Shown here: one piece after another, positions 17,969 to 45,830 of the stretch
Layout: each line of letters opens with the position of its first letter
Position numbering within the stretch: position 1 is the stretch's first letter
From: Bacillota bacterium
GTDB taxonomy: Bacteria > Bacillota > Desulfitobacteriia > Desulfitobacteriales > JAJXUE01
Direction of reading: 5' to 3'
DNA length: 64,000 nucleotides
Assembly: GCA_021811155.1 (NCBI GenBank)
Contig: JAJZPO010000001.1
Location: forward strand, 1,683 to 65,682
Translations under genes and position numbers: made by a program
Notes under the pieces: model-generated
The model's input: the letters and a program-made list of their open reading frames with translations, nothing else
What the model was told of the DNA's origin: nothing
The model's database searches: none

Positions 17969-20900
17969 TCACTTGGCTGAATCTGGGATGGATTGGGCTT
18001 TAGGGGCACGGGAGAAGACACGGCTGCGCACCGCGTCTAATACCTGGTAGGCTACCGGTACGATGAGCAGGGTGAGCAAGGTGGAGGTGGTGAGACCGGA
18101 GATTACCACCACTGCCATGGAGCGGGATATGAGCCCGCCCTCGTGGGAAACAGCCAAAGGCAGGAGGGCGCCTACGGTGGCTACGGCGGTCATCAGAATG
18201 GGCCTGAGCCGGGTGACCCCTGCTTCCACCAGAGCATCTTTCATAGCCAGGCCCTGCTTGCGGTTTTTGAGCGCCCGGTCCATCAAGACGATGGCATTGG
18301 TCACCACGATGCCGATGAGCATCAGGAAGCCCACCAGGGCGGGCATGCCCAGAGCCTCGCCGGAAAGGTACAGGCCGATCAGCCCGCCGGTAAAGATAAA
18401 GGGCAGGGAGAAGAGAATGGCGATGGGGGCCAGCATTTCGCCGAAGGCTACCATCATCACGGCGTAGACCATGAAGATTGCCGCGACCATGGCAAAAATC
18501 ATGTTCTTGAAGCCGTCGGACATGGCCTTGGACTCACCTTCGTAGTAATAGCTGACACCTTGAGGCAGGTTCAGAGCTTTGATGCGGGCGTCAACGTCTT
18601 TCTGCACGCCGGAAGAGTTGTCGGTGGTGAAGCGGCCTGTGACCGAGATGTATTCCTGCTGGTTCAGGCGCTGAATCGAAGTGGGGCCGGGCTTCTCGTC
18701 GATTTTTGCCACATCGGACAGCTTTACCTGACCGCCGGTCATGTTGGCGATTGTCTGGCTGCGGATAACGTCCAGGCTGTTGAGAGCTCCGGTTTTCAAA
18801 CCCAGGTTCACCGGGGTGGTGCGGCCGTCCAGGGTAACGTCCATCACATCGTCGCCGTTGATCATCTGGCGCACGGCCAGGGCTACCATGGCCGGGTTAA
18901 GGCCGTTTTTGGCCGCGGCATCCGGTTTGACATCGATGGAGAGCTGAGGTTTTACCGCGGACAGGTTGGTTTTCACGTTGGCGAGCCCGGGGACGGTCTT
19001 GATGGCGTTAACCATCTTGTCGCCGGCTTCCTTCAGAGCGTTAAGATCCGGGCCGTTGACCACGATGAACAGGCCGCCGTAGCCGGTCATTCCCAGGGGG
19101 GAGAGGGCGGTTTGCACATCCGGGCCCAGGCTGTTTGTTATCTGCTGCATATCCTGTTCGAATTTTTTCGTTTGATCCAGGGTAACGTTGGGATCCAACT
19201 CGATGCCGATTCTTAAATTCTCGCCGTTAACGCTGGTCTGGTAGCTTTTCATCCCGGGGTAATTGCGCAGGGACTGTTCGATCTTGGCGGCTGCCTGGTT
19301 GGTCTTTTCCGTAGCGGTGCCTACGGGCATGGTTGCAGTTAGGGAGTAGGACACTGTTTTCTCGGAAGGCAGGAAGTTTTGGGGAATCCTGGAGACCAGG
19401 GCCAGGGATGCGCCAAAGACCAGGAGGGACAGGGCGGCGATAACCAGCTTGTGCCTGAGGGACCAGTTGAGTACGGTGCGGTAGGTGCGCTGCAATATGT
19501 TCTCTCCTGCCTCCCGGTGCCTGATGCCCAGGAGAAAGAGGCGGGCAAGCAGAGGGACGACGGAAATCGCCACCAGGAGAGAGAAGACCAATGAAACCAC
19601 TACGGTGACTCCAAAGGGGGCGAAGAATTTGCCTACAATCCCCGGCACGAAGGAGAGGGGACCAAAGACGGCCACGGTGGTGATGGTGGAGGAGGTAACA
19701 GCGGGGGACACTTCCTTGGCTGCCCTGAGCACCAGGTCCAGGGAACGCTCCTCGCTGGTGCGGACGTGGCGGTAAATATTCTCCATCACCACGATGGAGT
19801 CGTCCACAACCCGGCCTACGGCAACGGCGATGCCCGCCAGGGTCATGATATTCAGGCTGTAATCCAGCCAGTAAAGCACCATCATGGAAGCGAAAATTGA
19901 CAAGGGTATGGAAAGTATGGCCACCAGGGTGGAACGCCAGTTGCGCAGGAAGAGGAAGGTGACCAGCATGGCGAAGAGGGCGCCGAGGAGGGCTTCGCGC
20001 AGCATAACGTCAACGGATTTTTTGATCTGGACTGAGTTGTCCTGGAGCTTAGCCAGGTGATAGCCGGCGGGGAGATTGATTCCCGCCAGCTTGGCGTTGA
20101 TGTCATTCACTGCTTCTACCGTGTTCGTGCCGGCCTGGGTAAAGATGTCCGTCACCACGGCCGGTTCCCCGTTCAGGCGGGTGATGACCGTATCTTTGTC
20201 AGGCGCGTAGGACACAGTGGCGATGTCCGAGAGCTTGATGGTGCGGATCTTCAGGGCGGGGGCGGCTGAGACATCGCCGCTTCGCTTCGGAGCGGAGGTG
20301 CCGGAGAGGCTTTGCAGGGCTGAGGCCGTATCCCCGCCGGAAGCGTTGACCTGGTCCTGGAGCTGGGTGAGCTGGGTCTGCAAACCGCTTAGCTGGGCTT
20401 GTTCAGCGGCGATCTTTTGGTTTTGGACTGCGATCTGCTGCTGCAGGGCTGCCGCTGCGGTTTGGTCTGTGGTGCTTTGCAGGGCTGTGCCGAGGGCTTG
20501 CAGTTTTGACTGGTCGGCCAAGAGGGTCATAGAAAGGCCGTTGATGCCCTGGATGAGCTGGATCTGGCCCTGCAAAAGCATCTGGCCCTTGGTCAGGCTG
20601 CCTACCCCCTGGCCCAGCTTGCCCAGGGAGGAGCCGAGGGAGCTGAAGCCGTCCCCGACGCTCTTAAAGGCATCGGTGAGGCTGCTCATGTCCTGGTCTA
20701 TTACCACCAACTCCAGGTTTTTGGCGTCATCCAGGGAATGGATTTTTTTGCCCACTTCCACGTTCAGGCCTTTGTCTGCCAGGGTGACCTGTCCGGCGGG
20801 AATGGAGATGTTATTGGCCTGGAGCGCCTGTTTGATTTTATCCAGGCTGAGGTTATACTCTTTCATTTTGTCGGGGTCAACCCGTATGTACAGCTTCTTC

Positions 20901-21436
20901 TCGGACTGGCCCTGTACTTCCACATTGGAAATTCCAGGGGCGGAGGCGAGAGCCGGTTTGATGTGGTCTTCGACATACTGCTGGATGCTGGCCTGGTCGG
21001 TGTTGGCCGTAATGCCGAAGGAGTAAATGGCCTCGGCGTTGGGTCCCTGCTTGGAAATCTGCGGCTTTTGGGCCCCCTCAGGCAGCTTTAGCCCGGCCAG
21101 GGCGCTCGTGACATCTTTCTCCGCGTCGCTCATGGACTGTTTCATGTCAAATTCCAAAGTGGCGGCAACATAGTTGCTGCCTGAGGTAACGTAAAGGTTC
21201 TTTAGGTTATTGATGCCCGACAGGGCCTGTTCCAGGGGTTTGCCCACGTCATCCAGGGCCTGATGGGGGTTGGCGCCTGGATAAAGCACCACAACAGACA
21301 AATAGGGAATATCCACGTTGGGCATATTCTCCTGCTTCATGTTCAGAACCGAGTAGACTCCCCCGGCCAGAATCATCAGCATGGCCAGGAAAATTACCCC
21401 GGCGTTTTGCATCGAAAATTTGATCCACCTATTCAT
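17969..21436 (-). CDS. RND-superfamily efflux transporter (AcrB/SwrC-like) with ~150-aa Q-rich coiled-coil insertion
   Basis: 12-TM RND architecture. MNRWIKFSMQNAGVIFLAMLM start sits behind GGGAGGAAAAGGA, so ATG is at 21436; the first 23 track codons are discarded. The insert is encoded at 20249-20695. Confidence 0.85.
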   Translation of the reverse strand: MNRWIKFSMQNAGVIFLAMLMILAGGVYSVLNMKQENMPNVDIPYLSVVVLYPGANPHQALDDVGKPLEQALSGINNLKNLYVTSGSNYVAATLEFDMKQSMSDAEKDVTSALAGLKLPEGAQKPQISKQGPNAEAIYSFGITANTDQASIQQYVEDHIKPALASAPGISNVEVQGQSEKKLYIRVDPDKMKEYNLSLDKIKQALQANNISIPAGQVTLADKGLNVEVGKKIHSLDDAKNLELVVIDQDMSSLTDAFKSVGDGFSSLGSSLGKLGQGVGSLTKGQMLLQGQIQLIQGINGLSMTLLADQSKLQALGTALQSTTDQTAAAALQQQIAVQNQKIAAEQAQLSGLQTQLTQLQDQVNASGGDTASALQSLSGTSAPKRSGDVSAAPALKIRTIKLSDIATVSYAPDKDTVITRLNGEPAVVTDIFTQAGTNTVEAVNDINAKLAGINLPAGYHLAKLQDNSVQIKKSVDVMLREALLGALFAMLVTFLFLRNWRSTLVAILSIPLSIFASMMVLYWLDYSLNIMTLAGIAVAVGRVVDDSIVVMENIYRHVRTSEERSLDLVLRAAKEVSPAVTSSTITTVAVFGPLSFVPGIVGKFFAPFGVTVVVSLVFSLLVAISVVPLLARLFLLGIRHREAGENILQRTYRTVLNWSLRHKLVIAALSLLVFGASLALVSRIPQNFLPSEKTVSYSLTATMPVGTATEKTNQAAAKIEQSLRNYPGMKSYQTSVNGENLRIGIELDPNVTLDQTKKFEQDMQQITNSLGPDVQTALSPLGMTGYGGLFIVVNGPDLNALKEAGDKMVNAIKTVPGLANVKTNLSAVKPQLSIDVKPDAAAKNGLNPAMVALAVRQMINGDDVMDVTLDGRTTPVNLGLKTGALNSLDVIRSQTIANMTGGQVKLSDVAKIDEKPGPTSIQRLNQQEYISVTGRFTTDNSSGVQKDVDARIKALNLPQGVSYYYEGESKAMSDGFKNMIFAMVAAIFMVYAVMMVAFGEMLAPIAILFSLPFIFTGGLIGLYLSGEALGMPALVGFLMLIGIVVTNAIVLMDRALKNRKQGLAMKDALVEAGVTRLRPILMTAVATVGALLPLAVSHEGGLISRSMAVVVISGLTTSTLLTLLIVPVAYQVLDAVRSRVFSRAPKAQSIPDSAK

Positions 21437-21569
21437 TCCTTTTCCTCCCAAACCACTTTCTTGCTTCACCAAGGGTATTACGCAACATGCCGCCGGATGT
21501 TCCACCTAGCGCCTGCAAATTATAGCTTATGCATTGTGTGCTTACCACAGTATATTATATCATGAGCTT

Positions 21570-25875: not shown

Positions 25876-25952
25876 CGGGGTATAGCGCAGTTTGGTAGCG
25901 CGCCTGCCTTGGGAGCAGGAGGCCGGGGGTTCAAATCCCTCTGCCCCGACCA
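25876..25952 (+). tRNA. tRNA-Pro (anticodon UGG)
   Basis: CGGGGTA/TGCCCCG acceptor stem, anticodon loop CTTGGGA, GGTTCAAATCC T-arm, encoded CCA. Confidence 0.95.
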
Positions 25953-25961
25953 TAACTCGAT

Positions 25962-25996
25962 GTTCGAAGTTTGAGGTTCGAGGTTCGATTTAGAAT
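25962..25996. repeat. Heptamer array (GTTCGAA GTTTGAG GTTCGAG GTTCGAT TTAGAAT) in the tRNA spacer
   Basis: Period-7 units. Reverse complement of the 254-283 array. Ends in AGAAT like the GAGTCAG arrays. Confidence 0.8.
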
Positions 25997-26059
25997 AATA
26001 GATTTTGAGCCTGGTATCCTCAGGGTTTGTAGCTTCGGAGAGAGTTTTCCCGTTGATGA

Positions 26060-26136
26060 GCGCCTGTAGCTCAGTTGGATAGAGCATCTGCCTTCTAAGC
26101 AGGTTGTCGGGAGTTCGAATCTCTCCAGGCGCGCCA
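26060..26136 (+). tRNA. tRNA-Arg (anticodon UCU)
   Basis: GCGCCTG/CAGGCGC acceptor stem, anticodon loop CTTCTAA, GAGTTCGAATCTC T-arm, encoded CCA. Confidence 0.95.
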
Positions 26137-26145
26137 AAACAATAT

Positions 26146-26222
26146 GGTGGATGTGGCGAAGTGGTTAACGCACCGGATTGTGGTTCCGGCATTCGGGGGT
26201 TCGAAACCCCTCATCCACCCCA
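26146..26222 (+). tRNA. tRNA-His (anticodon GUG)
   Basis: Extra 5' G(-1) paired to the discriminator C, anticodon loop TTGTGGT, GGTTCGAAACC T-arm, encoded CCA. Confidence 0.95.
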
Positions 26223-26264
26223 TTCGCGTATAAATGGTTAGCGTTTTGCTAACCGTAATTATAT

Positions 26265-26339
26265 TGGGGTGTCGCCAAGCGGTAAGGCACCAGACTTTGA
26301 CTCTGGCATGCGTTGGTTCGAATCCAGCCACCCCAGCCA
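26265..26339 (+). tRNA. tRNA-Gln (anticodon UUG)
   Basis: TGGGGTG/CACCCCA acceptor stem, anticodon loop CTTTGAC, GGTTCGAATCC T-arm, encoded CCA. Confidence 0.95.
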
Positions 26340-26358
26340 GATAAAATTAATAAGTTTT

Positions 26359-26441
26359 GCGGGAGTGGCGGAACTGGCAGACGCACCAGATTTAGGTTCT
26401 GGCGGGCAACCGTGCAGGTTCAAGTCCTGTCTCCCGCACCA
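26359..26441 (+). tRNA. tRNA-Leu (anticodon UAG)
   Basis: GCGGGAG/CTCCCGC acceptor stem, anticodon loop TTTAGGT, long variable arm (class II), encoded CCA. Confidence 0.95.
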
Positions 26442-26460
26442 TTTACATTGCAGCAATTAA

Positions 26461-26483
26461 GATTCCGCAGGGAGTCTTTTTTT
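26461..26483 (+). terminator. Rho-independent terminator after the tRNA cluster
   Basis: GATTCC, loop GCAG, GGAGTC stem, followed by a T7 run. Confidence 0.6.
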
Positions 26484-26637
26484 GCATTTCATGGTTTTTA
26501 CCACTGTCCTGAGGATTTACGCTTCAGTTCCGGCATACGGGCGTTATGCTTGTACATATAGGAACAATGTTGTAAAATTGTCCTCAGGTTTTGTGTTTTT
26601 ATACCCGTCTTCAAGCTGGCTTATAAAGTGGTGAATT

Positions 26638-27789
26638 ATGAAGAACATCAGGCAGCAGGTCTTTCTGCTGGCAGTGGGACCGCTCATAGCTGTTACCCTG
26701 ATAACTTTGCCGATCCTGGGGGTTATCAGCAGGGAAAATGCCGTATATGCGGAAACTACCAAGGTAAAAAGCGACCTGGCCAACGGCGAGGCCATACTGG
26801 AGTATCTTTACCCCGGCACGTGGGAAAGCAAGGACGGACTCCTGTACAAGGGCGGGATAAGGATTAACCAAAACTATATCCCTGTTGACCGGATCGCTGC
26901 GCTCTCGGACGATAACGTAAGCATTTTTTGCGGCGATACCAGGATTTCCACCACTATCCGTACCAATGACGGGGAGCGCGCGATAGGCACCAAAGCTGCA
27001 GAACATGTTTCTGCCAGTGTACTAAAAGACGGGCAGCTTTACATCGGTGAAGCAAATGTGGCGGGCGCTGCCCCTATGACCGGGTATAAGCCGATCCGGG
27101 ATAAGAATGGGAATATAATAGGTATGATTTCTGTAGGCATATCGCAAAAGTTCGTTGACCACCTGTGGCGGGACTACTTTCTCATCATGATTGCGTGCAA
27201 CCTGGCGGTTGCCGCGGCAGTGGGAGCGGTTTTCTGGCTCTTTGCCCGACGCAGCGTTTCCGGCCCCCTGGAACGGATGACAAATAACCTCTGGGAGGTT
27301 GCAACCAGCTACGGAATCGATTATTCGCATCCCGCAACCGTGGGCGGGCTGGCTCAAGGATGTGAAAACTTCCTCAGAATGAGAACCGAGGCGGTTGACG
27401 AGAGCAGCGCTGCTGTTGAAACGGCCGCTCCTGATAATAATGTACCTGCCGCCGGCCAAGCAAGCCCGGTCGGACAGGAGCCAAACCCTAACGAATTTAC
27501 TTACATTGAGCCTTTTCCTTCCAGTTCCCAGGTGGTTCCCATGCCCCTGAAGGAGGAGCTGCCGAAGGGGCTGAATCGAACAACCATGCAGCAAATCGTC
27601 ACCTTCCTCTTGAGCAGGAACGAGCCCATGTCTGCGGAGGAAGTAGGTGAAGGCGTCAACATTACCCGGGTGACCGCGCGCCGCTACCTGGAATACCTTG
27701 AGAACAGCGGCAGGGTCAAGATAATTATCAGGTACGGCACTGTGGGGCGTCCGGTCAAGCTATACAAGGCGATACTCAGAGAGCAGTGA
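26638..27789 (+). CDS. Membrane-anchored sensor-regulator: extracytoplasmic single-Cache (sCache_3-like) domain fused to a CitB/DcuR-type C-terminal HTH
   Basis: TM1 (res 7-30). Cache signature (LYKGGIRINQNYIPVDRI...GERAIGTKA...LYIGEANVAGAAPMTGYKPIRDKNGNIIGMISVG). TM2 (res ~183-205). P/A/S-rich linker. Then LPKGLNRTTMQQIV...SAEEVGEGVNITRVTARRYLEYLENSG...YGTVGRPVKLYK. No HisKA/HATPase or receiver motifs are visible. Confidence 0.75.
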   Translation: MKNIRQQVFLLAVGPLIAVTLITLPILGVISRENAVYAETTKVKSDLANGEAILEYLYPGTWESKDGLLYKGGIRINQNYIPVDRIAALSDDNVSIFCGDTRISTTIRTNDGERAIGTKAAEHVSASVLKDGQLYIGEANVAGAAPMTGYKPIRDKNGNIIGMISVGISQKFVDHLWRDYFLIMIACNLAVAAAVGAVFWLFARRSVSGPLERMTNNLWEVATSYGIDYSHPATVGGLAQGCENFLRMRTEAVDESSAAVETAAPDNNVPAAGQASPVGQEPNPNEFTYIEPFPSSSQVVPMPLKEELPKGLNRTTMQQIVTFLLSRNEPMSAEEVGEGVNITRVTARRYLEYLENSGRVKIIIRYGTVGRPVKLYKAILREQ

Positions 27790-27806
27790 TTATAGGGAGT
27801 GGATAG

Positions 27807-27840
27807 AAGGTTGTGAGTCACTTGCAGCCTTTTTTGTTTT
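27807..27840 (+). terminator. Putative rho-independent terminator
   Basis: AAGGTTG pairs with CAGCCTT (7 bp including one G-U), 11-nt loop, followed by TTTTTGTTTT. Confidence 0.5.
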
Positions 27841-28018
27841 GTCCTGAAACCCGGCACAGCAGGGTTCTCACGGCTTGCGCCGAATTTCACAAGAGTTTTG
27901 AAAATTTAGTTTATTTAGTAAATGGATAAATCTTTAGTTCAATATGTACAAAAGCTATTATTATTTGAACCGGACAGTTAGTATTGACTTTGGACAAAAC
28001 TGGCAGCGGGGGTCGGAT

Positions 28019-28357
28019 ATGCACGAAACTGCCCTGGTTTCAGGCATTATGAAAATAGCGTTCGAACAGCTGGAAAATCACAGGCTGAACAGGCTGGTGG
28101 CGATCAAACTGAAGGTGGGGGAATTTTCCGGAGCTTTCCCCGACGCTCTGAGGTTTGCCTTTGAGGCCATGGTGGCAGAGACGGAACACAGCGGAGCACG
28201 TCTGGAAATCGAAGAAATCCCCGGGAGGGGCCTTTGCCGTTTCTGCCAGGCGGAATTCTCTTATACTCCCGGCATGGAATGCCCGAGCTGCGGGGGATTG
28301 GCGCCAAAACTGGTGCAGGGAGAAGAGATGCTCCTGGAATCGATTGAGGCTGAGTGA
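28019..28357 (+). CDS. hypA: Hydrogenase nickel-insertion protein HypA
   Basis: MHETALVSGIM start (MHE motif) and two CxxC pairs (CRFCQ..., CPSCGG). SD GGGGG then ATG 28019. Confidence 0.9.
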   Translation: MHETALVSGIMKIAFEQLENHRLNRLVAIKLKVGEFSGAFPDALRFAFEAMVAETEHSGARLEIEEIPGRGLCRFCQAEFSYTPGMECPSCGGLAPKLVQGEEMLLESIEAE

Positions 28358-28370: not shown

Positions 28371-29036
28371 ATGGTGGAAATTAAGGTTGTTGCCAATGTA
28401 CTTAAGGCAAACGAAGATATGGCTGTGGTGAACCGGGAGATTCTTTCCCGGCGCGGCATCAGGGTCGTGAACATGATCAGTTCACCGGGCGCAGGCAAGA
28501 CCACAATCCTGGAGCGCACTGTCGAAGCCTTGAAAAACGAAATCCCTATGGCGGTCATTGAAGGGGACCTGATGACTACCCGGGATGCTGAGCGAATTAA
28601 CCGGCACGGTGTTCCGGTTGTCCAGATTAATACCCAGGGGGGATGCCACCTGGATGCCAATATGGTCAACAAGGCCATGTTGGAGCTGCCCCTGGATGAA
28701 ATAAAGCTGTTGATTATCGAAAATGTCGGCAATCTTGTCTGCCCAGCCTCGTTTGACCTGGGTGAAGATGCGAAGGTTGTGGTGCTGTCGGTCCCGGAAG
28801 GGGACGACAAGCCGTTAAAATACCCGCAAGTCTTTAGCAAGGCTGGAATTTGCCTTTTGAACAAAATAGATTATTTGCCCCACAGCAACTTCAATCTCAA
28901 GCAATTTTACCAGGATGCGGCTGCTTTGAACCCGGAGCAAAAAGTCTTTGAAGTCTCTGCCCTGAGAGAGGACGGGATGCAAAATTGGTACAATTACCTG
29001 CGGGAGCTGGTCCGGAAAAACCGGTTCGGGCTGTGA
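28371..29036 (+). CDS. hypB: Hydrogenase nickel-incorporation GTPase HypB
   Basis: SSPGAGKTT P-loop, ENVGNLVCPA motif, 221 aa. SD GAGGAGGG then ATG 28371. Confidence 0.9.
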   Translation: MVEIKVVANVLKANEDMAVVNREILSRRGIRVVNMISSPGAGKTTILERTVEALKNEIPMAVIEGDLMTTRDAERINRHGVPVVQINTQGGCHLDANMVNKAMLELPLDEIKLLIIENVGNLVCPASFDLGEDAKVVVLSVPEGDDKPLKYPQVFSKAGICLLNKIDYLPHSNFNLKQFYQDAAALNPEQKVFEVSALREDGMQNWYNYLRELVRKNRFGL

Positions 29037-31291
29037 CTGGGCCAGGTGAAGATTCATCCGCCCTTCTAGGGCTTGAAGTAAAAATCAAGGGCACGGTGCA
29101 GGGGGTTGGGTTTCGTCCCCATGTTTACCGCCTGGCTGCCGGCCTGGGATTGTTTGGATGGGTGATTAACACCGCCGCCGGGGTAACCGTTCACCTGGAG
29201 GGACATTTGTCTCAAATTGAGGCTTTTTGCCGGGAATTGCGCGCCAACCTGCCACCCCTGGCAAGAATAGACTCCTGGCTTGAACGCCCGGCTGTCCCGG
29301 CAGGCTACAGCTCGTTTTTTATCCAGGAAAGCCATGCGGGGTCCGATACTGAGATCAGCATCCCCCCGGATACCGGCACCTGTCCTGATTGCCTGGAGGA
29401 ATACTCCGATCCGGCGGACAGGAGGTACGGTTACGAATTTACCAACTGCGTCAACTGCGGTCCCAGGTTCAGTATAACCCGGGCTGCCCCGTATGACAGG
29501 GCCAACACCTCCATGCATATGTTCCGGATGTGTGAGCGGTGCCTGGCGGAATATTCCGACCCCGCCGACCGGCGTTTCCATGCCGAACCGAATGCCTGCC
29601 CGGTCTGCGGTCCCAAAGTGGAGTTCAGTTCCGGCACCAAACCGGAAGATATCCGGCAGGCCTTAAAGGCAGGCCGGATTCTAGCGATAAAAGGAATCGG
29701 CGGCTACCACCTGGCGTGCAACGCCCTGGACGAGAAGGCTGTCCTGCTCATGCGCCGCCGCAAAAAAAGGGAAACAAAGCCTTTTGCCATTATGTGCCGG
29801 GACCTGGACGAGGTACGCCGCTATTGCTATTTGTCCGCGGAGGAAGAGGGCCTCCTGGCCTCGCCCGCAAAGCCTATAGTTTTGCTTTGCCGCCGGGAGG
29901 ATGCTCCTCTTGCGGCGGAAATCGCGCCAGGACTCAACACATTAGGTGTTATGCTGCCGTATACTCCTTTGCATTACGGGCTTTTTGACCGCGAACTGTC
30001 CGTCTTGGTTATGACCAGCGCCAATATCAGCGGTGATCCGCAAATCCTGACCGCAGCAGAAGCTCACTCCGAACTTGAGAACCTGGTGGATGGGTTTGTA
30101 GAGCACCCGCGGCAGATTGTCAACCGGGCCGATGATTCGGTCCTCATGCGCCATAATGGGCACGACTATTTTGTCAGGCGGTCCAGGGGGTATGTGCCGC
30201 AAAGGATTCTTCTGCCTGAGAGTGTGCCGGAGATCTTTGCGGCCGGAGGGGACTTGAAAGCCGTATTTGCCTTTGTCCGGGAAAAATCCGTTGTCCTCAG
30301 CCAGTATTTCGGAGACCTGGAAAATGTCAAGAATTTTGATGCCTACCGGCAGAGCGCAGAGTTTTTCCGCGGGTTTCTCCGGGCTGAACCGAAAATAGCT
30401 GCGGCCGACCTGCATCCCAATTATTTCAGTTCGTCTTTGGCCCGGGACTTTAACCTTCCTCTGGTACAAATCCAGCACCACCAGGCTCATTTTGCCGCCT
30501 GTATGGCGGACAATGGCATTACGGAAAAGGTCCTGGGCGTGGTGTGCGATGGCACAGGGTACGGTGAAGACGGAACTGTCTGGGGTTGTGAATATTTTTA
30601 CGGTGATTTTCAGCGGCCGGCCAGGGTTGGAAGCCTGGAGCAGTTTTTCCAGTCCAAAGGTGACGGGGTGCAAAAGAACCCAGAGCAAATGGCTGCCATG
30701 CTTCTCTATGAACTGGGCTGCAGAGAGGAAATAATCGCCGGCTTGCTGCCAGGGTGCGCTGAAATCCTGCCTTTGCTTGCTCCCATGCAGAGGAGCAGGA
30801 TGCTCAGCGTCAGATCGTCCAGTTCAGGCCGGCTGTTTGATGCAGCGGCAGCTCTGTGTGGAGTTTCAACCCGCTCTTCTTATGAAGGGGAAGCTGCCAT
30901 GCGGCTGGAGTCCCTGGTCGGAGGGCTGAGAGACGTCAAACCCTATTATTTTGAAATCAGGGAGAAGGACATGCCGCGCTTGTCATGGGATTTCCTGGCC
31001 CTGATGGCGGAAGACAGAGCAGCCGGCCTCTCGCCCCGGGAAATGTCGGAGCGTTTCCACCGCACTTTTGCGGACGGGATTCTGGCAATGCTCACTCTGC
31101 TAAAGGAAAGGTTTCCCGCCCAAAAAGCGGTTTTCTCCGGCGGGACTTTCCAAAACCGGGTGCTTATAAACTATCTGGCGGAAAAGATACCGGAGATCGG
31201 GCTTACCCCTTTTTTCCACCGCCAGGTTCCTGCCAATGACGGCGGACTGGCCCTGGGGCAGGTGGTGTTAGCAGCTGCGGAGTATCGATAG
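29033..31291 (+). CDS. hypF: Carbamoyltransferase HypF
   Basis: Acylphosphatase domain (IKGTVQGVGFRPHVYRLA), two CxxC-x18-CxxC zinc fingers (CPDCLEE...CVNCGPRF; CERCLAE...CPVCGP), YrdC and Kae1-like regions. GTGA overlap with the hypB stop makes GTG 29033 the likely start. Confidence 0.9.
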   Translation: MTGPGEDSSALLGLEVKIKGTVQGVGFRPHVYRLAAGLGLFGWVINTAAGVTVHLEGHLSQIEAFCRELRANLPPLARIDSWLERPAVPAGYSSFFIQESHAGSDTEISIPPDTGTCPDCLEEYSDPADRRYGYEFTNCVNCGPRFSITRAAPYDRANTSMHMFRMCERCLAEYSDPADRRFHAEPNACPVCGPKVEFSSGTKPEDIRQALKAGRILAIKGIGGYHLACNALDEKAVLLMRRRKKRETKPFAIMCRDLDEVRRYCYLSAEEEGLLASPAKPIVLLCRREDAPLAAEIAPGLNTLGVMLPYTPLHYGLFDRELSVLVMTSANISGDPQILTAAEAHSELENLVDGFVEHPRQIVNRADDSVLMRHNGHDYFVRRSRGYVPQRILLPESVPEIFAAGGDLKAVFAFVREKSVVLSQYFGDLENVKNFDAYRQSAEFFRGFLRAEPKIAAADLHPNYFSSSLARDFNLPLVQIQHHQAHFAACMADNGITEKVLGVVCDGTGYGEDGTVWGCEYFYGDFQRPARVGSLEQFFQSKGDGVQKNPEQMAAMLLYELGCREEIIAGLLPGCAEILPLLAPMQRSRMLSVRSSSSGRLFDAAAALCGVSTRSSYEGEAAMRLESLVGGLRDVKPYYFEIREKDMPRLSWDFLALMAEDRAAGLSPREMSERFHRTFADGILAMLTLLKERFPAQKAVFSGGTFQNRVLINYLAEKIPEIGLTPFFHRQVPANDGGLALGQVVLAAAEYR

Positions 31292-31302: not shown

Positions 31303-31524
31303 ATGTGCTTAGCGGTACCGGCTAAGGTGATCTCCCTTGACAAGGAGATTTTCCTTGGCGAAGTCACGATTATGGGAAACAGCAAAATGGTCAGCATCGC
31401 CCTGGTGCCCGAAGTGGAAGTGGGGGACTGGGTGCTGGTCCATGCGGGGGAGGCCATAAGCCTCATTTCCCCGGAAGCTGCCCAGGAGTCAGAGGAGCTG
31501 TGGCAAGCGATCATCGACGGTTGA
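31303..31524 (+). CDS. hypC: Hydrogenase assembly chaperone HypC/HupF
   Basis: MCLAVPAKV N-terminus with the essential Cys2, 73 aa. Confidence 0.9.
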   Translation: MCLAVPAKVISLDKEIFLGEVTIMGNSKMVSIALVPEVEVGDWVLVHAGEAISLISPEAAQESEELWQAIIDG

Positions 31525-31533: not shown

Positions 31534-32631
31534 ATGCCCGTGATTGAGGATGGAAAGCGGAAGTATTTCCGACTTTTTAGAGATGAGCTGGAGCGGATTG
31601 CTGTGCGGCCGGTCCGGTTGATGGAAGTATGCGGCACCCATACCATGGCAATCGGCAGGGCCGGACTGAGGCAGGTCCTGCCGCCGCAAATCAGCCTGGT
31701 CTCCGGCCCGGGGTGTCCGGTATGCGTCACTGCAGACGCGGATATCGACTCCTTCCTGGGGTTGGCCAAGGAAAGGCGGGTCACTGTCGCTACCTTTGGC
31801 GACATGATGCGGGTGCCTGGCAATGAAGGAAGCCTGGCTGATTTTAGGGCCGCCGGCGCAGATATCAGGGTAGTCTACTCTCCCCTGGAGGCTTTGGAGC
31901 TGGCCCGTTCCAACCCCGGCCAGGAAATTGTCTTTCTGGGCATCGGGTTTGAGACCAGCGCCCCTGGGACGGCCCAGGCCATCATCCGCGCCGGGAGGGA
32001 AGGGCTGAAGAACTTCAGCGTGTACAACCTGCACAAGACAGTGCCGCAGGCGCTGCAGGTACTGTTGGACGATCCCGGGCAGGCTCTTGATGCCTTCATC
32101 CTGCCGGGGCATGTCAGCGCCATCATCGGAGAAGCCCCGTACCGCTTTATGCCGGAGAAGTACGGCGTGGGCGGGGCCATAGCCGGTTTCGAACCTACGG
32201 ATATTTTGGCCGCGATTGCCAGACTGGTTAAGGACATTAATTCCGGCTGCCCTCGCATTACCAACCTCTACGGCCAGGTAGTCCGCCCCGGCGGCAACAC
32301 CGCGGCGCAGCAAATCCTGGCTGAGACCTTTGAGCCGTGTGATGCCGACTGGCGCGGGCTCGGCATGATTCCCGGGAGCGGCCTGAAACTGCGCCCGCGT
32401 TATGCCGGATTCGACGCGGCGCTGAAATTCGGCGTCAGCCGGGCCCCGGCGAAGGTCCGCGCCGGCTGCCGCTGCGGCGAGGTCTTGAAAGGAATCCTCA
32501 GGCCTGTGGCGTGTCCGCTGTTTGGCAGGACGTGCACCCCTGAGCATCCGGTCGGGCCCTGCATGGTCTCCTCCGAAGGGACCTGCGCAGCCTATTATCT
32601 TTATGAAGGCGGGAAGGCCCATGCCAGCTAA
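31534..32631 (+). CDS. hypD: Hydrogenase maturation Fe-S protein HypD
   Basis: MEVCGTHT, GPGCPVCV and C-terminal CxxC...PCxxxC motifs, 365 aa. Confidence 0.9.
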   Translation: MPVIEDGKRKYFRLFRDELERIAVRPVRLMEVCGTHTMAIGRAGLRQVLPPQISLVSGPGCPVCVTADADIDSFLGLAKERRVTVATFGDMMRVPGNEGSLADFRAAGADIRVVYSPLEALELARSNPGQEIVFLGIGFETSAPGTAQAIIRAGREGLKNFSVYNLHKTVPQALQVLLDDPGQALDAFILPGHVSAIIGEAPYRFMPEKYGVGGAIAGFEPTDILAAIARLVKDINSGCPRITNLYGQVVRPGGNTAAQQILAETFEPCDADWRGLGMIPGSGLKLRPRYAGFDAALKFGVSRAPAKVRAGCRCGEVLKGILRPVACPLFGRTCTPEHPVGPCMVSSEGTCAAYYLYEGGKAHAS

Positions 32632-33813: not shown

Positions 33814-34215
33814 ATGGACCGGGCGGGTTTTTTCCGGTATCTGGCGGCAAGAGGGGCTTCGACAGCAGTGGATGTGGTGAAGCATGTAATCAACCCCTTG
33901 GCAAGCCTGGAGGACATAAAGACGACTGTCAGGCCCCTTATTCCATTAAGCCAATATACTGCCAGGCCCCAACTGCTCAGCGCTTCTGATCCGCCTTTGT
34001 TCTTAACCGGAGAACCGGGGGCAGATCTTAGGGCAGTGAAGGCTACCTGTGAAAAAGACGGATTCCTTCTCTCCTACCTGCCCAGGGAAGAAGCGCTATT
34101 TTGCCCTGCCTGTAATACAAAACATGCTTTGAAGCGAGGTGATGCAGCAGCGGGCGCCGGTCTGCCGGCATACCCGGTGGCGCTAGACGGAGATTACATC
34201 TGTTTAATCAAGTGA
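33814..34215 (+). CDS. Hypothetical small protein upstream of the hydrogenase (possible degenerate Rieske-like fold)
   Basis: 133-aa ORF behind AAAGGTGG. C79-x17-C97-x2-C100-x3-H104 spacing and the C-terminal LPAYPVALDGDYICL recall the Rieske-domain layout. No family confirmed. Confidence 0.4.
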   Translation: MDRAGFFRYLAARGASTAVDVVKHVINPLASLEDIKTTVRPLIPLSQYTARPQLLSASDPPLFLTGEPGADLRAVKATCEKDGFLLSYLPREEALFCPACNTKHALKRGDAAAGAGLPAYPVALDGDYICLIK

Positions 34216-34233: not shown

Positions 34234-34270
34234 CAAAGACGAAAAAAGGATGTCAAGAGGGGGTTTAACA

Positions 34271-35341
34271 GTGGGATTATTAGAAGAACTAAGCTCTAAG
34301 AGGATTGAGCGCCGCGATTTCTTAAAACTGTGCGGCGCTGTGACAGCGGCCTTTTCCCTGCCGCTTACGTTTCAGGACCATATTGCCTCCGCAGCGGAGC
34401 AGGCCATGGCCAAACCCCGCGTAATCTGGCTCGAGGGCCAGGATTGCGCCGGCTGCAGCGAGTCATTCCTGGCAACGATGAACCCTTCCGTTGCCGAACT
34501 GGTCCTGGACACTTTGTCAATTCGCTATCATGAGACTATTATGGGCGCTTCCGGAGAGGTGGCAGAAAAAGCCCTGCGCGACACCATGAAAGAAGGCGGC
34601 TACATACTGGTGGTCGAAGGTTCCATACCCAAAGCGGACGACCGGTTCTGCCTGGTTGGCGGCAAGCCTTTCCGGGAGACCGTGATGGAAGTGGCGGAGA
34701 ATGCGGCGCTGGTGATTGGCGCCGGGTCCTGCGCCATGTACGGTGGGGGCATTCCGGGTGCCACACCCTCAATGGGTGGCGGAGTTGGGGAATTTGTCAA
34801 GAACAAGCCGCTTATTAACCTGCCGTCCTGCCCGGTGAAACCGTCACGTCTGGTGGCCACTGTTTTGTATTACCTCGCGGCAAAAAAGGCGCCTCCGCTC
34901 GACAGCTACAATAGGCCGGTGGCCTTCTACGGCAGCCTGATCCATGACAACTGCCCCCGGCGGGGCCAGTTTGAAAAGGGCAATTTCCTGACCGACTGGA
35001 ACGATCCGGAACAGCGCGGCTACTGCCTGCTGAAGAAGGGGTGCAAAGGCCCGAAAACCTATTCCGATTGTGCACAGGTCTGGTGGAACGAGGGCGCGAG
35101 TTTCTGCATGAATGCCGGCGCGCCTTGTGCCGGCTGCGGCCAGCCTGAATTCTATAAAGAGTTTTCCCCGCTTTACGCAAACCAGGAAACGTTGGGGATC
35201 GGATTTGGCAAGTCGGTCAATGTTGACACTGCCGGGGCCTTCGTAATCGGGGCTACTGCGGCCGGTGTCGCAGTTCACGGCATAGGCCGGGTCATTGCCG
35301 GAAAAGGTCCGGATGCAAATAAAGAGGATGAATTAGGTTAG
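34271..35341 (+). CDS. [NiFe] hydrogenase small subunit (Tat signal, C-terminal membrane anchor)
   Basis: Twin-arginine signal RRDFLKLCG, proximal-cluster motif WLEGQDCAGCSES, C-terminal hydrophobic helix. SD AGAGGGGG then GTG 34271 (track ATG 34250 has no spacing to an RBS). Confidence 0.9.
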   Translation: MGLLEELSSKRIERRDFLKLCGAVTAAFSLPLTFQDHIASAAEQAMAKPRVIWLEGQDCAGCSESFLATMNPSVAELVLDTLSIRYHETIMGASGEVAEKALRDTMKEGGYILVVEGSIPKADDRFCLVGGKPFRETVMEVAENAALVIGAGSCAMYGGGIPGATPSMGGGVGEFVKNKPLINLPSCPVKPSRLVATVLYYLAAKKAPPLDSYNRPVAFYGSLIHDNCPRRGQFEKGNFLTDWNDPEQRGYCLLKKGCKGPKTYSDCAQVWWNEGASFCMNAGAPCAGCGQPEFYKEFSPLYANQETLGIGFGKSVNVDTAGAFVIGATAAGVAVHGIGRVIAGKGPDANKEDELG

Positions 35342-35356: not shown

Positions 35357-36913
35357 ATGGCTCAAAAGATTATCATAGATCCGGTCACCCGCATCGAAGG
35401 CCACCTGGCCATCGAAGTAGAAGTGGAGGGCGGCAAGGTTAAAAACGCCTGGTCCAAGGGGACAATGTTTCGCGGTCTGGAAGTGCTGCTGCGGGGGAAA
35501 GATCCCCGCGAGGCTTCGTATGTAACCGATAGGGTTTGCGGCGTGTGCACTGGTTCCCACCAATGGGCTTCAGCCCTGGCCCTGGATGACGCTTTCCACG
35601 CCAATGTGCCCGATGGGGGCAGACTTGTGCGCAACCTTATCCTGGGAGCAATCTGGCTGCACGACCATCCGCTTCATTTCTATCACCTCAGCGCGCTGGA
35701 CTACCTGGATGTGATGGCTGTTGCCCAGTACAAGGGGAACGACCCCGGCCTGAACCAGGTAAAGGATAAGCTGGTTAAGCTGGTCCAGATGAAGGACACT
35801 TCGCCCCTGACCCCGCGCTATGAACCGGATGAATTCTGTGTGACAGACCCGGAAATTGTGACCACAGCCGTTGCTCACTATCTTAAGGCTTTGGAAATTC
35901 AGGCAAAGGCCAAGCGGATGGCAGCGCTTCTGGGCGGAAAAGTTCCCCACAATGCCGCGATTGTGGTGGGCGGAGCTACAGTTTATCCGGAACTCCAGCT
36001 GCTGGCCCAATTCCGCAGCCACTTGCAAGAGGTTGCTGATTTTATCGAAAACATCTATATTAAGGACGTCTTGCTCTTTGGCACCGGCCCCCTGCTACCC
36101 CTGGCCAAGGCCGGGGTAGGTGATTCCGGCGGGAATTACCTGAGCTACGGCGGCTTCGCCAATTCCTCAGCTAAAACGGACCTGCACCTACCCGCAGGAG
36201 TTATCATAGATAATCAGTTTGACAAAGTCAGCCAGGTTTCCACCAACATGATTTTGGAGCATGTGTCCCATGCCTGGTATGACAACAACAGTCCCTTGAA
36301 TCCCGCAGAGGGGCAGACCAGCGTTAACCCCAACAAGAGCCAGGGTTACAGTTATATCAAGGCTCCCCGCTATGATGGCAGGGCCATGGAAGTCGGCCCG
36401 CTGGCACGCACGCTGATCTCAAAACCGGCGGAATTCATGCAGCTGCTGCAGCAGGGCGTTAAGCCCGGCGCTGTAGCACGTCATGCGGCGCGCGCTATTG
36501 AGACCGTAAGGCTGGCAAAACAGTTGTTCAAGTGGCTGGATCAACTGGAGAATATGGTTGCGTTGGGACAGTGCAAGATCCACGACACCTCGGCCTGGGA
36601 AGTTCCCAAAAATTCACAAGGGGCCGGCTTGACAGAAGCGCCGCGCGGAGCCCTCGGACACTGGCTGAAAATCGTCGATCAAAAAATCGACAACTATCAA
36701 CTGGTGGTACCCTCAACCTGGAATCTTTCGCCCCGGGATGATAACGGGGGAATGGGGCCGGTTGAGAAGGCCTTGATCGGCGCTCCGGTACCGGATGTCA
36801 GCAATCCCTTGAATGTGGTGAGAATTGTCCGCTCCTTTGACCCGTGCATTTCCTGCGCAGTGCATATCATCGAGCCCAATTCCAATAAAATCCTGGAATT
36901 TAAGGTGAGTTAG
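35357..36913 (+). CDS. [NiFe] hydrogenase large subunit
   Basis: RIEGH, RVCGVCTGSH (N-terminal CxxC) and C-terminal DPCISCAVH followed by a 15-aa cleavable extension. All four metal ligands are Cys. Confidence 0.93.
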   Translation: MAQKIIIDPVTRIEGHLAIEVEVEGGKVKNAWSKGTMFRGLEVLLRGKDPREASYVTDRVCGVCTGSHQWASALALDDAFHANVPDGGRLVRNLILGAIWLHDHPLHFYHLSALDYLDVMAVAQYKGNDPGLNQVKDKLVKLVQMKDTSPLTPRYEPDEFCVTDPEIVTTAVAHYLKALEIQAKAKRMAALLGGKVPHNAAIVVGGATVYPELQLLAQFRSHLQEVADFIENIYIKDVLLFGTGPLLPLAKAGVGDSGGNYLSYGGFANSSAKTDLHLPAGVIIDNQFDKVSQVSTNMILEHVSHAWYDNNSPLNPAEGQTSVNPNKSQGYSYIKAPRYDGRAMEVGPLARTLISKPAEFMQLLQQGVKPGAVARHAARAIETVRLAKQLFKWLDQLENMVALGQCKIHDTSAWEVPKNSQGAGLTEAPRGALGHWLKIVDQKIDNYQLVVPSTWNLSPRDDNGGMGPVEKALIGAPVPDVSNPLNVVRIVRSFDPCISCAVHIIEPNSNKILEFKVS

Positions 36914-36925: not shown

Positions 36926-37519
36926 ATGAGTTCGGTAAAAATTACTCTGCCCCGCCGGCTCTTCCACTGGACCAACCTGATTGCTATTGCAGCCTTGGCG
37001 GTAACCGGCTGGTACATTCATAAGCCCTTCGTTCCCGGCTCTATGGGGCTGGTGCGGCAGATTCATTTTGTCTTTGCTTTTGTCTTTGCCATCAATACTT
37101 TGCTGCGTGTCTACTACGCCTTTACCCCGGCAGGGGACTGGAGGAAATACCTTAAGCCGCAAATCAGCAAAGAAAGGATCAGGCTTGTGTTCAGACACTA
37201 TGCCTTTTATGAACACCTGCCCGAGGGGGAAGAATTCCGCCTGCTGCAAAACGCTTCCTACCTGGCCCTGGTTTTGCTGTTTGGAGTTCAGATTTTCACC
37301 GGCATCCTGATGTATAACCCCGAGGGGGGCGTCACCGGGATTATTAACTGGCTGGGAGGGCTGAGCGCAGTCCGGCAAGCCCACCTCCTGCTGCAATGGG
37401 CATTTATCGCCTTTACTATAATCCATCTATACATGGTGGTTTCTGAAGAACTGTTCCAGGTCAAGAACATTTTCTTTGGCATCACCAGCGGGAAGGAAGG
37501 AGTGGTCAATGAAAGATAA
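36926..37519 (+). CDS. Ni/Fe-hydrogenase b-type cytochrome subunit
   Basis: 197 aa, 4 TM helices. LFHWTNLIAIAALAVTGWYIH and conserved His positions as in HyaC/HupC. Confidence 0.85.
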   Translation: MSSVKITLPRRLFHWTNLIAIAALAVTGWYIHKPFVPGSMGLVRQIHFVFAFVFAINTLLRVYYAFTPAGDWRKYLKPQISKERIRLVFRHYAFYEHLPEGEEFRLLQNASYLALVLLFGVQIFTGILMYNPEGGVTGIINWLGGLSAVRQAHLLLQWAFIAFTIIHLYMVVSEELFQVKNIFFGITSGKEGVVNER

Positions 37520-41801: not shown

Positions 41802-41840
41802 GCCTGCCTAAATTGTAAAAGAAGAGAGGTGTAAGTATTC

Positions 41841-42443
41841 ATGTCTACCTTAGTACCTATGGTAGTAGAACAAACTAACCGGGGAGAGCGGGCCTATGAC
41901 ATCTATTCCCGCTTGCTAAAGGACAGAATTATCTTCATCGGCGGACCAATCAACGATCTGGTGGCCAATCTGGTTATTGCCCAGATGCTGTTTTTGGAGG
42001 CTGAAGATCCTGACAAGGACATTTTCCTTTACATCAACAGCCCGGGAGGGTCTATTACATCGGGTATGGCAATGTATGATACCATGCAGCATGTGAGACC
42101 TGATGTGCAGACCATCTGCGTGGGCATGGCTGCCAGCATGGGTGCTTTCCTTCTCGCAGCCGGAGCTAAGGGCAAACGCTATGCCCTGCCCAATAGCGAA
42201 ATCATGATTCATCAGCCTTTAATGAGCGGTCTTGGCGGTCAGGCCACCGAAATTGAAATTCATGCTAAGCATTTGGTCCGGACCAGGGAACGGTTGAATA
42301 ACATTTTAGCGGAGAGAACCGGTCAACCGCTCGAGAAGATCGGGAGGGACACCGACAGGGACTATTTCATGACGGCCGAAGAGGCCAAGGAATACGGACT
42401 TGTGGACGGGGTGATGGTCAAGCCGCAGAAAAAGGCCAAGTAG
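41841..42443 (+). CDS. clpP: ATP-dependent Clp protease proteolytic subunit
   Basis: [25 protein letters not shown]..., catalytic GMAASMGA (Ser) and IMIHQP (His). Confidence 0.95.
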
Positions 42444-42464
42444 AGCCGGTAGAGAGGTGATATT

Positions 42465-43724: not shown

Positions 43725-43736
43725 ACCAACAACAAG

Positions 43737-43771
43737 AAACCTGGCAGCTCCGCAAGCCCGCCGGGTTTTTT
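43737..43771 (+). terminator. Putative terminator after clpX
   Basis: AAACCTGG pairs with CCGGGTTT (8 bp including one G-U), with a 16-nt loop, followed by a T run. Weak geometry. Confidence 0.4.
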
Positions 43772-43816
43772 GTCGAAGTTTCTAGGTACCTGGAACCATA
43801 AAGGGAGTCGAGAGAA

Positions 43817-45762: not shown

Positions 45763-45790
45763 CGGGGTAACCCTTAAGTTCAAGGAAGAG
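45759..45790 (+). repeat. 32-nt duplicate of an internal clpX segment (31/32 identical to 43477-43508)
   Basis: TTGACGGGGTAACCCTTAAGTTCAAGGAAGAG versus the clpX sequence TTGACGGGGTAACCCTTGAGTTCAAGGAAGAG. This copy contains the MFS stop codon. Confidence 0.85.
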
Positions 45791-45795
45791 ACAGA

Positions 45796-45830
45796 GTGAG
45801 TCAGTTGGGGACGGTTCTTGGTTGACTCAC
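45796..45830 (+). repeat. Conserved-core hairpin repeat (GTGAGTCA-stem type)
   Basis: GTGAGTCA...TGACTCAC encloses GGGGACGGTTCT (45807-45818). Twin copy at 50464-50498. Confidence 0.85.

Follow-up and report, generated by a model that had tools for sequence, protein, structure and literature searches.

A membrane-anchored one-component regulator joining a formate-chemoreceptor-type Cache domain to a CitB-family DNA-binding domain, encoded upstream of hydrogenase genes in a Bacillota bacterium

The window analyzed here, a 64-kb stretch (64,000 nucleotides) of contig JAJZPO010000001.1 from a Bacillota bacterium of the order Desulfitobacteriales, contains an intact gene (26638..27789, plus strand, ATG to TGA) encoding a protein of 383 amino acids (aa). 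Its product is a one-component regulator anchored in the membrane, in which a Cache sensor outside the cytoplasm and a helix-turn-helix (HTH) domain of the CitB/DcuR family share one polypeptide, without a kinase or receiver; from the N terminus the protein consists of a transmembrane (TM) segment, an sCache_3_3 domain, a second TM segment, a HAMP-like module, a linker, and an HTH_64 domain. A membrane-tethered regulator of this kind was the substance of the original prediction, which had been made from the DNA letters, and the architecture confirms it, as does the lack of kinase or response regulator genes among the open reading frames (ORFs) scanned within ~10 kb on either side. Also as described there, hypABFCDE and an uptake-type hydrogenase are encoded directly downstream of the gene; all were confirmed with Pfam, the hydrogenase being a [NiFe] enzyme. 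We consider the protein to be a tethered, phosphorelay-free sensor of small carboxylates that probably controls the hyp/hydrogenase promoter, a reading to which we assign a probability of roughly 0.55. Typical members of its family are predicted to be sensors of extracellular formate that switch on formate and H2 metabolism without a phosphorelay.

The textbook regulator responding to formate, FhlA, is to our knowledge proteobacterial and cytoplasmic. Little is understood of the sensing of formate and H2 in the control of dehydrogenases and hydrogenases in Gram-positive anaerobes, among them sulfate reducers, metal reducers, and syntrophs. The family described here is a concrete candidate for this role, with a predicted ligand, a predicted operator, and predicted regulons (formate dehydrogenase [FDH], FocA, and HydABC; in the window, hyp and [NiFe]-hydrogenase). 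A single protein would here lead from a small acid outside the cell to transcription, a compact design that might be of use as a biosensor chassis.

Domain architecture and origin of the regulator

Exactly two hydrophobic segments are evident from hydropathy, at residues ~8 to 30 (TM1; 26659..26727) and ~180 to 203 (TM2; 27175..27246), the latter also seen in the structure model. Basic residues lie on the cytoplasmic side of each segment, with K2 and R5 preceding TM1 and R204 and R205 succeeding TM2, placing the N terminus in the cytoplasm and residues ~31 to 179 (26728..27174) outside the membrane. This extracytoplasmic part is a single Cache domain of the sCache_3_3, formate-chemoreceptor type, as judged by Pfam, sequence matches in the PDB, and Foldseek. 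The sCache_3_3 profile (PF17202) matched residues 75 to 177 over profile positions 2 to 104 of 107 (E value of 3.1e-32, 111.5 bits), and the top PDB sequence matches were 8PY0 (E value of 3.5e-10) and 8PY1. The top Foldseek match was again 8PY0, with a target-normalized template modeling score (TM-score) of 0.81, an E value of 1.8e-9, and a root mean square deviation of 2.5 Å over 152 columns; 8PY1 gave a target TM-score of 0.74. An AlphaFold2 model of the single chain, computed with the 64-sequence family alignment described below as input (mean predicted local distance difference test score [pLDDT] of 80.6), contains a long N-terminal helix (residues 4 to 57), the alpha/beta core of the Cache domain (62 to 167), and helices at residues 170 to 224, continuous from TM2, and 232 to 257. 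Residues 255 to 301 are disordered in the model (pLDDT of <50) and are followed by a winged helix at residues 314 to 378 that consists of three helices and a beta-hairpin wing (pLDDT of >90). The exact translation, Pfam, hydropathy, and the model agree on a 383-aa protein with TM1, an extracytoplasmic Cache domain, and TM2, as had been proposed.

The region following TM2 had been described as a P/A/S-rich linker of ~110 aa, a description that overlooked a HAMP-like module in its first half. A HAMP domain is detectable with Pfam in nearly all of the homologs, between TM2 and the linker, and the family profile matches the HAMP domains of Tsr, PcaY, and NarQ. Pfam reports no HAMP in the window copy at an E value of ≤1; its residues ~204 to 257 (27247..27408) align column for column with the Pfam HAMP of the homologs, with P210 and L238 invariant. 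From the homolog alignment and the model, this region appears to be a degenerate HAMP-like module of two helices joined by a connector, followed by a disordered tether of ~50 aa rich in Pro, Ala, Glu, and Val (residues ~258 to 307; 27409..27558; delimited by pLDDT and composition). Across the family, the aligned segment from HAMP AS2 to LPKGLN ranges from 54 to 119 residues, and its sequence is unconserved, with no family-wide motif. In a tether that is otherwise unconserved, the window protein and a relative with 62% identity, P0002, share F(T/S)YIEPFPSSS(Q/K)(V/I)VPMP directly before LPKGL (residues ~287 to 307; listed under window positions 27287-27558). Specific to the window subclade, it may be a short linear motif, for instance one used for docking or cleavage.

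The C-terminal domain (residues 308 to 378; 27559..27771) is a winged HTH of the CitB/DcuR family, with the signature LPKGL ... TRVTARRYLEYLE ... YGTVGRPVK, in line with the original prediction and with Pfam, NCBIfam, and the model. HTH_64 (PF20714, DpiA-like HTH) matched residues 332 to 377 with 29.5 bits (gathering cutoff, 27 bits). The NCBIfam profile for DcuR covered residues 306 to 378 through its C-terminal positions 153 to 226 of 239 only (E value of 1e-11), and the DpiA profile likewise matched through its last ~75 positions only. Residues 303 to 377 (75 aa) are 53% identical to the C terminus of a response regulator annotated as DcuR, and CitB/DctR-family regulators by the dozen match the C terminus of the regulator at 40 to 65% identity. 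The recognition helix TRVTARRYLEYLE is identical in the window copy and in the FDH-linked Thermincola clade of the family. One-component use of HTH_64 is also seen in two proteins of 438 to 444 aa (P0073 and P0078), in which it is fused to LacI-HTH and periplasmic-binding-protein-fold domains. Pfam searches found no HisKA, HATPase_c, or Response_reg (PF00072) domain in the regulator even at an E value of ≤1, and NCBIfam kinase profiles matched it over the Cache and TM region only. This includes residues 205 to 310, which are clean at the same threshold in both databases and, in the model, consist of the HAMP-like helices and the disordered segment.

The two ends of the protein resemble different kinds of signaling protein. 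Residues 16 to 226 share 37% identity with a methyl-accepting chemotaxis protein. In the search of 1.84 billion representatives described below, most of the 83 that match with an E value of ≤1e-30 are ~520 to 620 aa long and align to the N-terminal part of the query only; those with Pfam data are chemoreceptors, and no kinase is among them. On sequence and fold, the N-terminal part, made up of Cache, TM2, and the beginning of HAMP, is chemoreceptor derived and not CitA/DcuS-like. Because residues 16 to 226 resemble a chemoreceptor and residues 303 to 377 resemble a DcuR-type regulator, the protein is chimeric, with a chemoreceptor sensor module (Cache, TM, and HAMP) joined to an output domain from response regulators of the CitB family.

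Parts of this design are found in several known systems. The CitA-CitB (DpiB-DpiA), DcuS-DcuR, DctS-DctR, and MaeK-MaeR systems have a homologous C-terminal winged HTH beginning at LPKGL, likewise receive small-carboxylate input through an extracytoplasmic PAS/Cache fold, and, in the case of MaeR, have AT-rich tandem repeat sites that the family operator resembles. They signal through a kinase, a receiver with a phospho-acceptor Asp, and phosphotransfer, whereas the regulator dispenses with all of these in a single polypeptide, and their sensors belong to a different Cache family from its chemoreceptor-derived sensor. FhlA, a sigma-54 activator that responds to formate and governs the formate hydrogenlyase regulon of Escherichia coli, has the role predicted for the family, namely, formate control of the expression of FDH, hydrogenase, and hyp genes. 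FhlA is a soluble AAA+ enhancer-binding ATPase of the cytosol that responds to intracellular formate; members of the family would in contrast sense an extracellular ligand with a Cache domain and without an ATPase. ToxR, TcpP, and CadC are likewise transmembrane proteins that sense outside or at the membrane and bind DNA themselves without a phosphorelay, and CadC also has a disordered cytoplasmic linker. In the ToxR/CadC type, an N-terminal OmpR-type winged HTH, a single TM segment, and a C-terminal periplasmic sensor follow one another; the regulator has the reverse order, two TM segments, a Cache domain, and a CitB-type HTH. ArnR and ArnR1 of Sulfolobus are membrane-bound one-component regulators with HTH, HAMP, and TM regions (PMC6396743), and ArnR combines an HTH with HAMP as the regulator family does. 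Neither ArnR nor ToxR, TcpP, and CadC have sequence homology to the regulator, and the likeness is functional only. Tethered one-component regulators, formate-binding Cache domains, and CitB-type HTH domains are thus all known; what is new is the combination of sCache_3_3 with a CitB-type HTH, tied to formate and H2 metabolism.

Family membership, genomic neighborhoods, and operator

A search of 5.8 billion proteins, clustered at 90% identity, identified 64 clusters (the query's included) with the same collinear architecture. The 63 further clusters are 34 to 62% identical to the query, mostly 34 to 46%, over 90 to 100% of its length. Members are encoded in the finished genomes of Thermincola potens (CP002028) and Desulfosporosinus paludis (CP144211) and in T. 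ferriacetica, Calderihabitans maritimus, many Desulfosporosinus, Desulfofundulus, Desulforamulus, and metagenome-assembled genomes of Thermincolia and other Bacillota, where they are annotated as "cache domain-containing protein" or mislabeled as histidine kinases or chemotaxis proteins. The identical regulator protein of the window was present on 11 independent contigs. An exhaustive search of 1.84 billion representatives at 50% identity found the window protein to be the sole representative of its cluster and recovered 18 HTH_64-bearing representatives of the wider architecture, only 8 of which contain HAMP, so that HAMP is dispensable in the wider family. A published census of Cache domains lists a transcription-factor output for 14 of 276 sCache_3_3 proteins (Table 1 of Upadhyay et al. 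2016, PMC4822843). In all likelihood these proteins, tallied from UniProt 2012, have the architecture described here; the entry is a bare count that describes no member, ligand, target gene, or operator. It was the only item found in the literature on this architecture or on a Gram-positive formate regulator, which yielded no functional study.

In a neighbor-joining tree, an FDH-linked clade from Thermincola and Calderihabitans is basal and is sister to the long branch formed by the window protein and P0002. This closest relative is encoded on a 2.4-kb contig without an informative flank, and metagenome scans recovered no further members of the window subclade.

The genomic context of the family was examined at 80 genome loci and on individual contigs by typing the first downstream genes on the same strand with tblastn against references and confirming them with Pfam, which gave 56 informative loci besides the window. 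At 53 of these, the regulator gene lies directly upstream, on the same strand, of one of three kinds of target: an FDH operon (FdnGHI-FdhE; 25 loci), a FocA-type formate/nitrite channel (PF01226; 16 loci), or a HydABC-type [FeFe]-hydrogenase, often with HydG (12 loci). The downstream genes were of other types at the remaining 3 loci, one of which has an FDH just upstream and one of which faces a periplasmic [FeFe]-hydrogenase. The FDH operons encode a molybdopterin subunit with a Tat signal and one in-frame UGA, a 4Fe-4S subunit, a cytochrome b or NrfD subunit, FdhE, and often TatA. The catalytic subunits of Thermincola (L001, 11864-14896) and Calderihabitans (L003, 5166-8183), for example, have one in-frame UGA each, consistent with selenocysteine. 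Genomes of Desulfosporosinus contain two to three paralogs of the regulator, every one at a different target (FDH, FocA, or HydABC; sets L008/L020/L052, L009/L019/L047, and L032/L035/L053), and the tree groups these paralogs roughly by target, which suggests subfunctionalization.

The spacers between regulator and target also share a candidate operator. Gibbs sampling over 51 regulator-to-target intergenic regions converged, in 3 of 6 runs, on the motif ATTTTCTTTATTTACATAAT (17.8 bits), which occurs in every intergenic region sampled, always on the coding strand and 116 to 460 bp before the target start, and often in tandem at ~9, 20, or 30 bp. The best site per locus scored 12 to 27 bits in each of 50 family loci scanned. 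With the matrix rebuilt without the window, 69 sites of ≥14 bits were found in 21 kb of spacers versus 5 in the remaining 874 kb, an enrichment that is inflated, since each spacer scored had itself contributed a site to the training of the matrix and many of the loci are orthologous. The motif is common to three unrelated promoter types and to distant genera; in the FDH upstream region of the Thermincola potens homolog P0017 (L001), the site reads ACTTTAGTTATTTACGTAAA. Its core, TTATTTAC, resembles the tandem repeats TTATT(A/T)AA bound by MaeR, a CitB-family regulator (PMC5457438), a resemblance that fits because the HTH family is shared.

Ligand pocket of the family and of the window copy

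The structures 8PY0 (Oscillibacter ruminantium) and 8PY1 (Asticcacaulis benevestitus) are formate-bound sCache domains of chemoreceptors (PMC11804620). In their binding site, formate is salt bridged by an Arg (R111 in R6, R118 in R3, and R142 in PacF) and held by a hydrogen-bonding Thr (R6 T100, R3 T105) and a Tyr (Y160 and Y167, respectively), with T145 and T158 as the threonines of PacF; a Phe (F175 in R6 and F182 in R3) forms the pocket floor, which excludes acetate sterically and enforces specificity for formate (PMC11804620). Mapping of these contacts via HMMER alignments onto the 64-sequence family alignment revealed that the clamp positions are nearly invariant (R102, T105, and Y150 in 64/64 sequences and T118 in 63/64). 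Position 95 is Thr in 63/64 sequences and Ser in the window copy, so that the hydroxyl is kept. At position 165, the pocket floor, 60 sequences have Tyr, 2 have Phe, and 2 have Ser, the Ser pair being the window protein and P0002. By this alignment, the family as a whole carries the published formate-binding signature. Because the neighboring genes and the pocket signature agree, as two independent lines of evidence, we predict that formate is the signal of the family.

The regulators and the formate chemoreceptors (PacF, Atu0526, and those of 8PY0 and 8PY1) share the sCache_3_3 family, the TM segment and HAMP that follow the sensor, and the key Arg, the threonines numbered from PacF, and the Tyr, which in the window regulator are R102, T105, T118, and Y150. 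They differ in output, which is a chemoreceptor signaling domain in one case and a DNA-binding domain in the other. They also differ within the pocket, since the Phe of the chemoreceptor floor, a position at which most of the HTH family has Tyr, is Ser165 in the window copy and a Thr is Ser95, which makes the formate specificity of this copy uncertain. Formate-type Cache domains have been described as occurring "almost exclusively" in chemoreceptors (2025 paper, PMC11804620); if the prediction for the family is true, formate-binding Cache domains extend from chemotaxis to direct gene control.

The window copy has kept the carboxylate clamp (R102, T105, T118, and Y150) and has lost the size filter. 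Two further changes fall in or beside the aligned binding region: Tyr146 is replaced by Pro in the window and by Asn in P0002, and Phe164 is replaced by Ile in both. A slightly larger small acid is a plausible ligand of this copy. The expectation that the regulator senses a carboxylate was reasonable, and the pocket points to acids of the formate type over citrate or C4-dicarboxylates. With its long branch, degenerate HAMP, and altered pocket, the window copy is a divergent, fast-evolving offshoot of the family. Eight distant sCache_3_3-TM-HTH_64 proteins of 330 to 390 aa, mostly without a detectable HAMP (P0126, P0129, P0131, P0137, P0139, P0167, P0227, and P0243), have the clamp Arg replaced by Cys, Ile, Ser, Val, or Lys. 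Because several distant members replace the key Arg in this way, the scaffold appears to have been reused for other ligands, for which these proteins are presumably sensors, a diversification that the window copy seems to carry further. Its interest lies mainly in being a natural specificity variant; if the interpretation is true, ligand and target have been respecified within one sensor family.

Putative target promoter in the window and alternative explanations

The putative target of the window copy comprises hypA (28019-28357), hypB (~28374-29036), hypF (~29033-31291), hypC (31303-31524, the ORF beginning with MCLAVP), hypD (31534-32631), and hypE (ending at 33622), followed by the [NiFe]-hydrogenase small subunit (34250-35341, with the twin-arginine motif RRDFLK near its N terminus), large subunit (35357-36913), cytochrome b (36926-37519), and maturation protease (ending at 38009). 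All are on the plus strand and were identified with Pfam, the hyp coordinates being taken also from the gene calls of an identical public contig (GCA_027356595.1, DAHVXR010000043.1), and the hydrogenase is a membrane-bound [NiFe] enzyme of the uptake type. Just past the stop codon of the regulator is an intrinsic-terminator-like structure (27805..27843, plus strand) made up of a hairpin of 13 pairs (27805-27833) and a T-tract with the tail TTGTTTTGTC, from which we infer that hypA needs a promoter of its own.

The sole AT-rich block before hypA (27890-27985, 76% A+T) contains a candidate operator and promoter at 27904..27961 (plus strand), with three copies of TTTAGT, one TTATTTAG unit (27911-27918), and what could be a -10 element. 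The repeats begin at 27905, 27914, and 27933; the first two positions are those originally given, and the third had been placed at 27932. The triple clustering was seen in 0/100 shuffles of the whole window. The family matrix gives four weak matches in the block (5.4, 6.7, 5.6, and 4.7 bits), and the chance of four such matches in a 50-bp AT-rich block is ~0.0007 in local shuffles, with two of the four being one site read on both strands. By inspection, the third TTTAGT could act as a weak -35 element, 17 bp before TATTAT (27956-27961), which would suit an activator-dependent promoter. The earlier proposal that the TTTAGT repeats are the target holds to the extent that these repeats and the TTATTTAG unit are the best candidate upstream of hypA, consistent with binding by a CitB-family protein; the statistics are suggestive only.

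Two comparisons of this site with the family operator were set aside. A gapped alignment by eye to the Thermincola potens operator looked good and was not counted as evidence, and a G in the window site where ~90% of the family sites have C was, as a single site, too thin for a claim of covariation. The best match to the matrix in the whole window is TCATTCTTTATCCTCTTCAT at 14488-14507 (minus strand, 9.7 bits), inside glycosyltransferase genes and most probably a chance occurrence. The sequence downstream of P0002 on its 2.4-kb contig contains no operator match.

In the mechanism that we infer, from ligand and target to the sign of regulation and the passage of the signal across the disordered linker, a small carboxylate (formate or a slightly larger acid) would bind the Cache domain and shift the dimer geometry of TM2 and HAMP. 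Cache and HAMP receptors form dimers, and by analogy the regulator is probably dimeric as well. The shift would change how the two HTH domains, each on a flexible tether of ~50 aa, pair with one another or how available they are. Bound to the TTTAGT/TTATTTAG repeats at 27904-27938, the HTH domains would activate a weak hypA promoter, and with it the expression of hyp and the [NiFe]-hydrogenase. A broader proposal would make the family a hitherto unrecognized class of phosphorelay-free transmembrane transcription factors that read extracellular formate, pass the signal from HAMP to HTH across the disordered tether, and include a window copy retuned by Ser165 to another small metabolite and rewired to the maturation and expression of a [NiFe]-hydrogenase; taken as a whole we put this forward tentatively, with somewhat less than even confidence. 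How a Cache/HAMP dimer could control a DNA-binding domain through a disordered linker is a mechanistic question that it poses, and if the proposal is true, no current HAMP model explains it.

Several results weigh against control of the hydrogenase promoter by this route. The best operator site upstream of hypA, at 6.7 bits, has a P value of 0.13 in local shuffles, so that the family operator is not significant there; nhmmer, which allows indels, finds no family operator in the window; and a hexamer occurring three times is locally only mildly unusual (P = 0.04 to 0.13). Among ~57 loci, the window alone has hyp and a [NiFe]-hydrogenase as its target, and since P0002, the sole close relative, is uninformative, it is adjacency in a single lineage that ties the regulator to the hydrogenase. 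Formate is doubtful as the ligand of the window copy because Ser165 replaces the specificity-enforcing aromatic residue, and a disordered linker of variable length would seem to offer no obvious route for a conformational signal. For all members of the family, the binding of ligand and of DNA is predicted. At the family level the finding stands as real and coherent, borne out by domain anatomy, membership, context statistics, and a common operator; the ligand and target of the window copy are putative.

The same results raise the possibility that the window copy, as a paralog that has been relocated or is decaying, controls neither hypA nor the hydrogenase, with a fortuitous adjacency and a protein that acts at a distant site, regulates itself, or is inactive. 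The terminator-like hairpin between regulator and hypA would fit this explanation, as would the long branch, degenerate HAMP, and altered pocket, the unique context, and the failure of the family operator to reach significance anywhere in the 64-kb window. Yet the ORF is intact, and because P0002 at 62% identity conserves all domain cores and the linker motif YIEPFPSSS..VPMP, purifying selection appears to have acted on the protein. A regulated-looking operon lies immediately downstream, on the same strand, at 53 of the 56 other loci, and in the window the operator-like repeats cluster exactly in the one AT-rich block before hypA. On balance we consider a decaying or misplaced copy unlikely, with perhaps a minor share of the probability, and prefer the tethered sensor acting on the hyp/hydrogenase promoter.

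A different route to the same promoter would be signal-dependent proteolysis, in which ligand binding opens the disordered linker to cleavage and the HTH domain, released in soluble form, activates transcription. The long disordered linker would be accessible to proteases, a flexible tether conducts conformational signals poorly, and the short motif conserved in the window subclade could be a recognition site. However, no protease gene is conserved beside family members at the surveyed loci, the linker has no motif conserved across the family, and the presence of HAMP in most members suggests reversible conformational signaling. Membrane-tethered CadC and ToxR, moreover, bind DNA without being released. 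We regard proteolytic release as improbable, a little more so than a decaying copy, and retain signaling by the intact, tethered protein.

The original prediction had derived the regulator from the two ends of a CitA/CitB-like pathway, which would make it a citrate or C4-dicarboxylate sensor short-circuited onto a CitB output. The output half of this idea stands, the HTH being truly of the CitB family, and CitA PAS domains do occur among the fold matches, together with a weak match to the CitA-type sCache_3_2 profile (PF17203, 33.8 bits) and weak NCBIfam matches to DpiB and MalK. The sensor half does not, as sCache_3_3 leads sCache_3_2 by 78 bits (111 versus 34 bits), 8PY0 and 8PY1 outrank CitA in both sequence and fold (TM-score of 0.81 for 8PY0 versus ~0.5 to 0.6 for CitA/DcuS folds and ~0.55 for CitA), and the nearest Pfam-annotated relatives of the N-terminal part are chemoreceptors and not kinases. 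Family members neighbor formate and H2 genes, and no operon for citrate or dicarboxylate utilization was found beside them among the surveyed loci. A CitA/DcuS-like sensor is disfavored and very improbable. An artifact, whether a frameshifted gene pair read as a fusion or a cryptic kinase or receiver in residues 205 to 310, is refuted because ~64 collinear clusters, closed genomes among them, share the full continuous architecture, the identical protein recurs on 11 contigs, and the region in question consists of HAMP-like helices and disorder.

Directly upstream of the regulator, five tRNA genes (Pro-TGG, Arg-TCT, His-GTG, Gln-TTG, and Leu-TAG; 25876-26478) end in a terminator-like hairpin (26459-26478), and a consensus scan identified a promoter-like site (26551..26578, plus strand; TGTACA, 16 nt, TAAAAT). 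Because this site comes after the hairpin, the regulator gene is suggested to form its own transcription unit. Between hypE and the gene for the small subunit of the hydrogenase, which lie 630 bp apart, an ORF of 133 aa (33814-34215, plus strand) with a CPAC motif and other cysteines may encode a hydrogenase accessory protein or may not be a gene. No formate dehydrogenase was found among the window ORFs scanned. Elsewhere, the window encodes a resistance-nodulation-division (RND)-type transporter of the AcrB family (17969-21505, minus strand) and, at 40521-51221, a tig-clpP-clpX-lonB-lon-engB housekeeping cluster in the order typical of Bacillota.

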